Part shown: piece by piece, positions 41,303-41,508 of the stretch
Position numbering within the stretch: position 1 is the first letter of the stretch
Layout: each line of letters begins with the position of its first letter
Translations under genes and position numbers: made by a program
Assembly (NCBI RefSeq): GCF_003334385.1
Contig: NZ_QOWN01000032.1
From: Escherichia coli
GTDB lineage: Bacteria; Pseudomonadota; Gammaproteobacteria; Enterobacterales; Enterobacteriaceae
DNA length: 48,915 nt
Strand: one strand, 5' to 3'
The notes under the pieces: generated by a model
Database searches by the model: none
Seen by the model: only the letters and a program-made list of their open reading frames with translations
Told to the model about the DNA's origin: nothing

Positions 41303-41508
41303 GCTTTTCTCCACCAGCGCTGCGCGAAGCGCGCAGATTACCCGAAGTCCGCGCGGTTCGCCATGATTTCGTACCAAAGCCTGCGACTATCATACCTATT
41401 GAATAAAACAGATTGTTGTCTGGAACAATGTCCCCGATAATATGTAACATATTAGAAACATACCGGCGTCGTTGCCGATAAGTCTCCTTACTCATCCCGA
41501 GGTTAGTT

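Follow-up and report, generated by a model that had tools for sequence, protein, structure and literature searches.

Two short perfect palindromes lie in the 206-bp intergenic region between the divergent genes yfiF and trxC of Escherichia coli, and they raise the question of whether their symmetry is itself read, by a regulator or as a second promoter, or is a by-product of other elements written in the same DNA. A preliminary description of this sequence had proposed that they may be operators for a regulator other than OxyR, or overlapping divergent promoter elements. The trxC promoter and its ArcA operator are already known, and the palindromic symmetry is incidental: with a probability of about 0.9, the palindromes are by-products of the OxyR site, the core promoter and the ArcA direct repeats at trxC.

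Locus and frequency of the inverted repeats

The window, that is, the whole stretch of 48,915 nucleotides (48.9 kb) analysed here, comes from the E. coli chromosome: a 311-bp query that includes the palindromes matches 5426/5426 complete E. coli genomes, and the matching genomes carry the annotations yfiF and trxC under which the two genes had been presented. The gene order runs from ung, upstream, through yfiF and trxC to tapT and patZ downstream. In 5363/5426 E. coli genomes, the 61-bp stretch around the palindromes is the same, a high within-species identity that is expected for any core promoter. Inspection of the sequence confirmed palindrome 1 exactly where it had been placed, and palindrome 2 exists as well but had been given too short, since each arm is one base longer (8+1+8, not 7+1+7). 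The reported distances hold: measured to the start codons, the palindromes lie 56-97 bp from trxC and 110-152 bp from yfiF. All features are collected in Table 1.

Table 1. Coordinates of the genes, promoter elements, regulator sites and palindromes at the trxC locus, in window positions.
Feature	Position	Strand	Basis
yfiF CDS (tRNA/rRNA methyltransferase), divergent neighbour	40265-41302	-	annotated ATG at 41302
Probable site of the activator OxyR, AAAG-N7-CTAT-N7-ATTG-N7-CAGA (tetrad), directly 5' of the -35	41376-41412	+	consensus match and conservation
Palindrome 1, ATTGTT-N6-AACAAT	41412-41429		sequence inspection; perfect in 3/33 species
Putative trxC -35, TTGTTG (3/6 consensus bases); supplies the left arm of palindrome 1	41413-41418	+	conserved TTGT, 17 bp 5' of GATAAT
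Complete published ArcA-P site, 43 bp, three direct repeats	41419-41461	-	exact, unique match to ATGTTTCTAATATGTTACATATTATCGGGGACATTGTTCCAGA in the window
ArcA DR3, TTGTTCC, a weak repeat that forms the right arm of palindrome 1	41422-41428	-	published Ri 4.0 bits; 22 bp from DR2
Putative trxC -10, GATAAT (5/6), overlapping the left arm of palindrome 2	41436-41441	+	conserved columns, 17 bp after TTGTTG
Palindrome 2, TAATATGT-A-ACATATTA (8+1+8)	41438-41454		sequence inspection; perfect in 6/33 species
ArcA DR2, ATGTTAC, strongest of the three repeats; forms the centre and right arm of palindrome 2 and overlaps the start	41444-41450	-	published Ri 11.6 bits
Probable trxC transcription start range	41446-41451	+	published footprint; near 41448, ±3 nt
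ArcA DR1, ATGTTTC	41455-41461	-	published Ri 8.1 bits; 11 bp from DR2
trxC CDS (thioredoxin 2)	41509-41928	+	ATG at 41509

We counted perfect inverted repeats (arms of 6 nt or more, spacers of 0-8 nt) in the window, with dinucleotide-preserving shuffles as the control. The observed number, 155, compares with 129 ± 13 in the shuffles, so that palindrome 1 is at chance level and unremarkable; repeats of the 6-N6-6 type turn up by chance every 300-400 bp or so. For arms of 8 nt or longer, the expectation is only 0.02 per intergenic region of 206 bp, and 1.4% of the shuffles reached it; on composition alone, palindrome 2 is mildly to moderately unusual.

An RNA element was considered and rejected. 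An Rfam scan of 41150-41650 gave nothing relevant, its only hit being a chance snoRNA match (E=2.4). Since palindrome 2 straddles the probable transcription start, it could not form an RNA hairpin in the trxC mRNA.

The palindromes overlap a published ArcA-P operator

The trxC/yfiF region carries an ArcA peak in both ChIP-chip and ChIP-seq (Park et al. 2013, PLoS Genet, PMC3798270). The same study (PMC3798270) lists an ArcA box of 18.9 bits at trxC (atgtttctaatatgttac) and a three-repeat ArcA site (ATGTTTCTAATATGTTACATATTATCGGGGACATTGTTCCAGA), whose repeats have 8.1, 11.6 and 4.0 bits (their Table S4) and whose third repeat lies 22 bp from the second. The DNase I footprint of ArcA-P at trxC covers 48 bp, from -32 to +16 as counted from the mapped start, and anaerobic trxC expression is 2.7-fold up in an arcA deletion (Park et al. 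2013, PMC3798270). In addition, Park et al. noted, citing Ritz 2000, that the ArcA repeats overlap the OxyR activator site, and their list of ArcA-regulated operons has trxC and not yfiF (PMC3798270). The operator in the window does not differ from the published one: it is the same site, with identical 43 bp, 11-bp and 22-bp spacing and minus-strand orientation, and it extends over the core promoter and the start; the preliminary description had presented the same DNA by its inverted symmetry.

Comparison with regulator matrices, proposed earlier as a check, was run for ArcA. An 18-bp ArcA matrix was built from 113 published boxes (Table S3 of Park et al.), with the two boxes inside the window left out. 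The trxC box ranked first: ATGTTTCTAATATGTTAC at 41444-41461 (-) scored 19.3 bits and was the top match on both strands of the 48.9-kb window; true ArcA sites average 16.4 ± 2.8 bits. These positions hold two TGTTA-like direct repeats with an 11-bp centre spacing, the arrangement that defines an ArcA box, and DR3, at 22 bp, supplies an extra repeat in helical phase, although one that is only moderately conserved. With a 7-nt repeat matrix, DR2 scored 9.5 bits and DR3 3.6 bits.

The ArcA matrix also found two overlapping boxes of 16.4 and 15.8 bits at 48580-48608 (+), near the right end of the window, and weaker boxes of 10.6 and 10.7 bits at 39276-39304 (+), upstream of ung. By coordinate offset, these correspond to the published ArcA sites kgtP1 and ung/yfiD.

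The trxC core promoter and the anatomy of the palindromes

The 48-bp footprint must hold the 43-bp site, which places the trxC start within the range given in Table 1. From this range we assign GATAAT, 5-10 bp before the start, as the probable -10 and TTGTTG as the probable -35. Together the two hexamers score 8/12 against the consensus, and a scan of consensus sigma-70 promoters at a threshold of 9/12 accordingly returned no promoter, which fits a weak -35 and an activator-dependent promoter. Relative to the probable start, palindrome 1 would extend from about -36 to -19 and palindrome 2 from about -10 to +7. Both would therefore lie on the trxC core promoter (roughly -36 to +7) rather than upstream of it, and by the published footprint coordinates the earlier wording, 'upstream of trxC', does not hold in a regulatory sense.

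Each arm can be traced to these elements. In palindrome 1, the putative -35 supplies the left arm (aTTGTT), and the complement of DR3 supplies the right (AACAat). The left arm of palindrome 2 consists of the TAAT of the putative -10, followed by AT and then by GT, the last two bases of DR2; its centre and right arm consist of the rest of DR2 (AACAT) followed by ATTA, which belongs to the A/T-rich spacer of the ArcA box. DR2 with its neighbouring bases (ATGTTACAT) is a small palindrome by itself. The spacer reads TAAT at the needed position in 4/113 real ArcA boxes, where the position frequencies predict 4.4%, whereas random sequence completes the outer arm of palindrome 2 at 0.4%, so that real ArcA boxes do so about ten times more often. 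Once the -10 and the ArcA box are in place, the outer symmetry of palindrome 2 is a coincidence of roughly 1 in 25. The preliminary proposal was thus right in part: the other regulator is ArcA and the palindromes do overlap a promoter, but we found no evidence that they form a divergent promoter for yfiF.

The probable OxyR site adjoins the palindromes

trxC is activated by OxyR (PMC6831875, PMC4207228), whose motif consists of two ATAG-N7-CTAT dyads, ATAG-N7-CTAT-N7-ATAG-N7-CTAT (PMC8787470, PMC5002191). Scored against ATAGnTnnnAnCTAT-N7-ATAGnTnnnAnCTAT, the tetrad at 41376-41412 ranks highest in the intergenic region with 12/20, a value reached by only 20/48,879 scoring windows (top 0.04%), and a search with a pattern taken from this tetrad finds a single occurrence in the window. 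The tetrad ends at 41412 and the putative -35 begins at 41413. This is the layout of the OxyR promoters oxyS, katG, ahpC, grxA and trxC, in which four elements in 11-bp steps stand directly 5' of a weak -35. Taken together, the 12/20 motif match, the conservation described below and the secondary citation of Ritz 2000 point to 41376-41412 as the probable OxyR site. The match is degenerate, as is usual for OxyR, and the site adjoins the palindromes instead of lying inside them, touching palindrome 1 only at base 41412. The earlier impression that the palindromes do not match the OxyR tetrad was borne out, with scoring windows starting at 41409-41412 reaching 2-7/20.

A secondary OxyR-consensus match of 11/20 lies at 41415-41451 (+), over the core promoter, where a repressing OxyR contact would be. 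It is probably due to chance, as 115 scoring windows across the 48.9 kb attain this value.

The palindromes were also compared with the sites of Fur, Zur, DeoR, PdhR, AcrR, CRP, FNR, LexA and the GntR family, using consensus sites and not curated matrices, and nothing convincing was found. For Fur, the match to the consensus was 11/19, with all matching bases in the -10 or DR2.

Conservation follows the promoter and the direct repeats

A one-genome-per-species scan with TrxC gave 80 loci, and the trxC upstream regions of 33 Enterobacterales were aligned. The near-invariant columns of the OxyR tetrad are AAAG (41376-79), CTAT (41387-90), AT.G (41398-401) and C (41409), in exact 11-bp steps, and the other invariant or near-invariant columns are TTGT (41413-16), ATAAT (41437-41), AACAT (41446-50) and AAACA (41456-60). 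Within the -10, A41437, T41438, A41439 and T41441 are invariant and A41440 is nearly so. The AACAT of DR2 is invariant in the 33 species; in DR1, A41456, A41458, C41459 and A41460 are invariant and the rest of GAAACAT is retained by 90% or more of the species, while the DR3 core AACA shows moderate conservation (C41426 in 30/33). The conserved unit is the promoter hexamers, the OxyR tetrad and the direct repeat GTAACAT-N4-GAAACAT, not the symmetry.

Conservation of the palindromes themselves, also put forward earlier as a check, gave the opposite picture, as the symmetry is not kept in relatives. Palindrome 1 is perfect in 3/33 species, all of them Escherichia; palindrome 2 keeps its full 8+8 arms in 6/33, 7+7 in 10/33 and the inner ATGT-A-ACAT in 21/33. 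The persistence of the 7+1+7 form and of the inner ATGT-A-ACAT is probably explained by DR2, which is near-palindromic itself. Positions 41451-41454 drift (ATTA, AATA, TACA, AAAA and others) while the facing TAAT stays fixed, AATA being the natural variant in Citrobacter and the cryptic clade. Positions 41428-41429 are also variable, and the left-arm bases 41442-41445 change without a matching change in the invariant AACAT. Compensatory double changes were absent from 10/14 arm pairs and occurred in 1-2 sequences each at the other 4, and over the eight arm pairs of palindrome 2 there is a single apparent double change (1/33 sequences). Across the 33 species, therefore, the palindromes do not combine co-conserved arms with compensatory changes, as a symmetric operator would.

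An ArcA box of 13-19 bits stands at the same position in 28/28 Enterobacteriaceae loci, and one of 15-18 bits in 3/5 of the more distant aligned genera (Mangrovibacter, Hafnia and Edwardsiella hoshinae). The offset between the OxyR tetrad and the ArcA box is fixed at 49 bp in 26/28 Enterobacteriaceae loci; in the remaining two, the top OxyR-consensus window lies elsewhere. At five Erwiniaceae loci (Pantoea, Erwinia and Tatumella), the OxyR tetrad is kept and the ArcA box is absent, the best match having 1-6 bits, and it thus appears that ArcA control was gained or lost within Enterobacterales and that OxyR control is older.

Other readings of the symmetry

Palindrome 2, or both palindromes, might be the operator of a further symmetric dimeric regulator of the GntR, TetR or Fur kind, acting beside ArcA and OxyR. 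The operators of dimeric repressors (LacI/GalR, Fur, LexA, GntR-type) are likewise short perfect inverted repeats over a core promoter, and the low expectation for a perfect 8+1+8 palindrome (0.02 per 206 bp), the identity of the 61 bp among nearly all E. coli genomes and the retention of the inner ATGT-A-ACAT in 21/33 species would suit such a protein. Unlike in those operators, however, the arms are not co-conserved, compensatory changes are essentially absent and each arm is separately explained. The outer arms are perfect in only 6/33 and 3/33 species, complementarity-preserving double changes occur at only 4/14 arm pairs, in 1-2 sequences each, and all well-conserved bases already belong to an ArcA repeat or to one of the two promoter hexamers; about 4% of real ArcA-box spacers complete the arm by chance, and the within-species identity is that of any core promoter. 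We consider such a regulator very improbable. Still less credence goes to the palindromes being part of the OxyR site, as contacts of reduced OxyR or as the site of a second tetramer. The 11/20 match spans 41415-41451, and OxyR footprints, at about 45 bp, may extend to the left arm of palindrome 1, but the scoring windows that start at 41409-41412 reach 2-7/20, a score of 11/20 is attained by 115 scoring windows of the whole 48.9 kb, the palindrome centres are 25.5 bp apart and not the 22 bp of OxyR dyads, and the conserved elements with 11-bp periodicity lie upstream, at 41376-41412.

A bidirectional or overlapping divergent promoter would instead require that a minus-strand -10, either CATATT (41444 to 41439) or TAATAT (41454 to 41449), drives yfiF. 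In E. coli, symmetric -10 elements commonly give rise to bidirectional promoters whose two starts are separated by about 18 bp (Warman et al.; PMC12825309), and the A/T-rich, pseudo-symmetric -10 between divergent genes resembles them; transcription from the minus-strand CATATT would be predicted to start near 41432, about 17 bp from the probable trxC start. This arrangement is nonetheless unlikely here. A minus-strand start is not documented: the accessible portions of the supplements of PMC12825309 contain no yfiF/trxC entry, and neither do the accessible portions of the genome-wide start-site tables of Kim 2012, Conway 2014, Ettwiller 2016 and Mendoza-Vargas 2009, which do not extend to this locus. 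TAATAT on the minus strand falls in the non-conserved arm, yfiF is absent from the ArcA-regulated operons of Park et al. (2013), and the conserved upstream elements of yfiF are elsewhere, in a strongly conserved block with the candidate promoter TGGCGA-17-TAATCT at about 41335-41363, away from the palindromes. The perfect 17-bp palindrome at the trxC start is a derived state in Escherichia, and it is quite unlikely that in this genus it is additionally read by a symmetric regulator, or serves as a bidirectional -10 launching a long-leader yfiF transcript. If true, the extra regulator or the bidirectional -10 would add a third input to the OxyR/ArcA-controlled trxC promoter.

A compact redox-integrating promoter

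With the palindromes taken as by-products of the OxyR site, the core promoter and the ArcA repeats, the region can be read as follows. Oxidised OxyR would bind its four-element site (about -72 to -36) and recruit RNA polymerase to the weak sigma-70 promoter. At low oxygen or with a reduced quinone pool, ArcA becomes phosphorylated, and ArcA-P binds the three minus-strand repeats, TGTTTC, TGTTAC 11 bp on and TGTTCC 22 bp further, which would sit at about +7 to +13, over the transcription start and within the -35/-10 spacer, respectively. Bound there, ArcA-P reduces the expression of trxC by about 2.7-fold, presumably through steric occlusion of RNA polymerase. Each palindrome would then be a plus-strand promoter hexamer paired with a minus-strand ArcA repeat: the -35 TTGTT would face the AACAA of DR3, and the -10 TAAT(AT), together with the end of DR2, would face DR2 and the A/T-rich spacer of the ArcA box. 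Inverted symmetry is not required by this OxyR/ArcA scheme. The symmetry as a functional unit is not supported, since ArcA recognises minus-strand direct repeats and the facing arms are the -35 or the -10.

The locus shows how short perfect palindromes can arise without a dedicated reader in A/T-rich DNA, here from a promoter hexamer (TTGTT, TAATAT) opposite a response-regulator direct repeat (TGTT..) on the other strand. For annotation, the gain is a base-level map of a compact promoter with two redox inputs, activation by OxyR in response to peroxide, from about -72 to -36, and repression by ArcA-P in response to the quinone pool and oxygen, from about -29 to +14, a layout conserved across Enterobacteriaceae; beyond such bookkeeping, it is of little importance.

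Conserved leader sequences of yfiF and trxC

The block upstream of yfiF, ACATCGGGTAATCTGCGCGCTTCGCGCAGCGCTGGTGGAGAAAAGCATG at 41306-41364 (-), hardly varies among the 33 Enterobacterales, its conservation equalling or exceeding that of the adjacent first yfiF codons in the alignment. It holds the GC hairpin CTGCGCG-CTT-CGCGCAG (41336 to 41320), which in Serratia, Hafnia and Edwardsiella reads CGCGC-CCT-GCGCG, with stem bases swapped between G and C, and an upstream CATCGG can pair with CTGGTG beside the Shine-Dalgarno sequence. Rfam gave no match for the leader block, and its fold showed no extra stability over shuffles (z = -0.04). The conserved ATGGC 17 nt upstream of TAATCT could provide the -35 and -10 of yfiF, and the block is possibly an undescribed leader or regulatory element.

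On the trxC side, a stem in the 5'UTR was flagged as terminator-like on the minus strand (41461-41480, 7 pairs followed by TGTTTCTAAT); its T-run is poor, and it stands without an upstream minus-strand gene to terminate. Read on the plus strand, this stem is the small hairpin CGGCG-tcgt-TGCCG at 41464-41477 (+), about +16 to +30 and 3-5 nt after DR1. RNAalifold on the trxC 5'UTR returned no consensus structure, because the stems are out of register, and the single-sequence z-scores are weak, with 14/33 below -1.5. A hairpin of 3-7 bp occurs at or near the same place in most of the 33 species, with different stems (TGAGCA/TGCTCA, GGTGC/GCACC, GGCCC/GGGCC and CGCAGC/GCTGCG, for example), and is absent in 4; it may be a 5' stabilising stem-loop.
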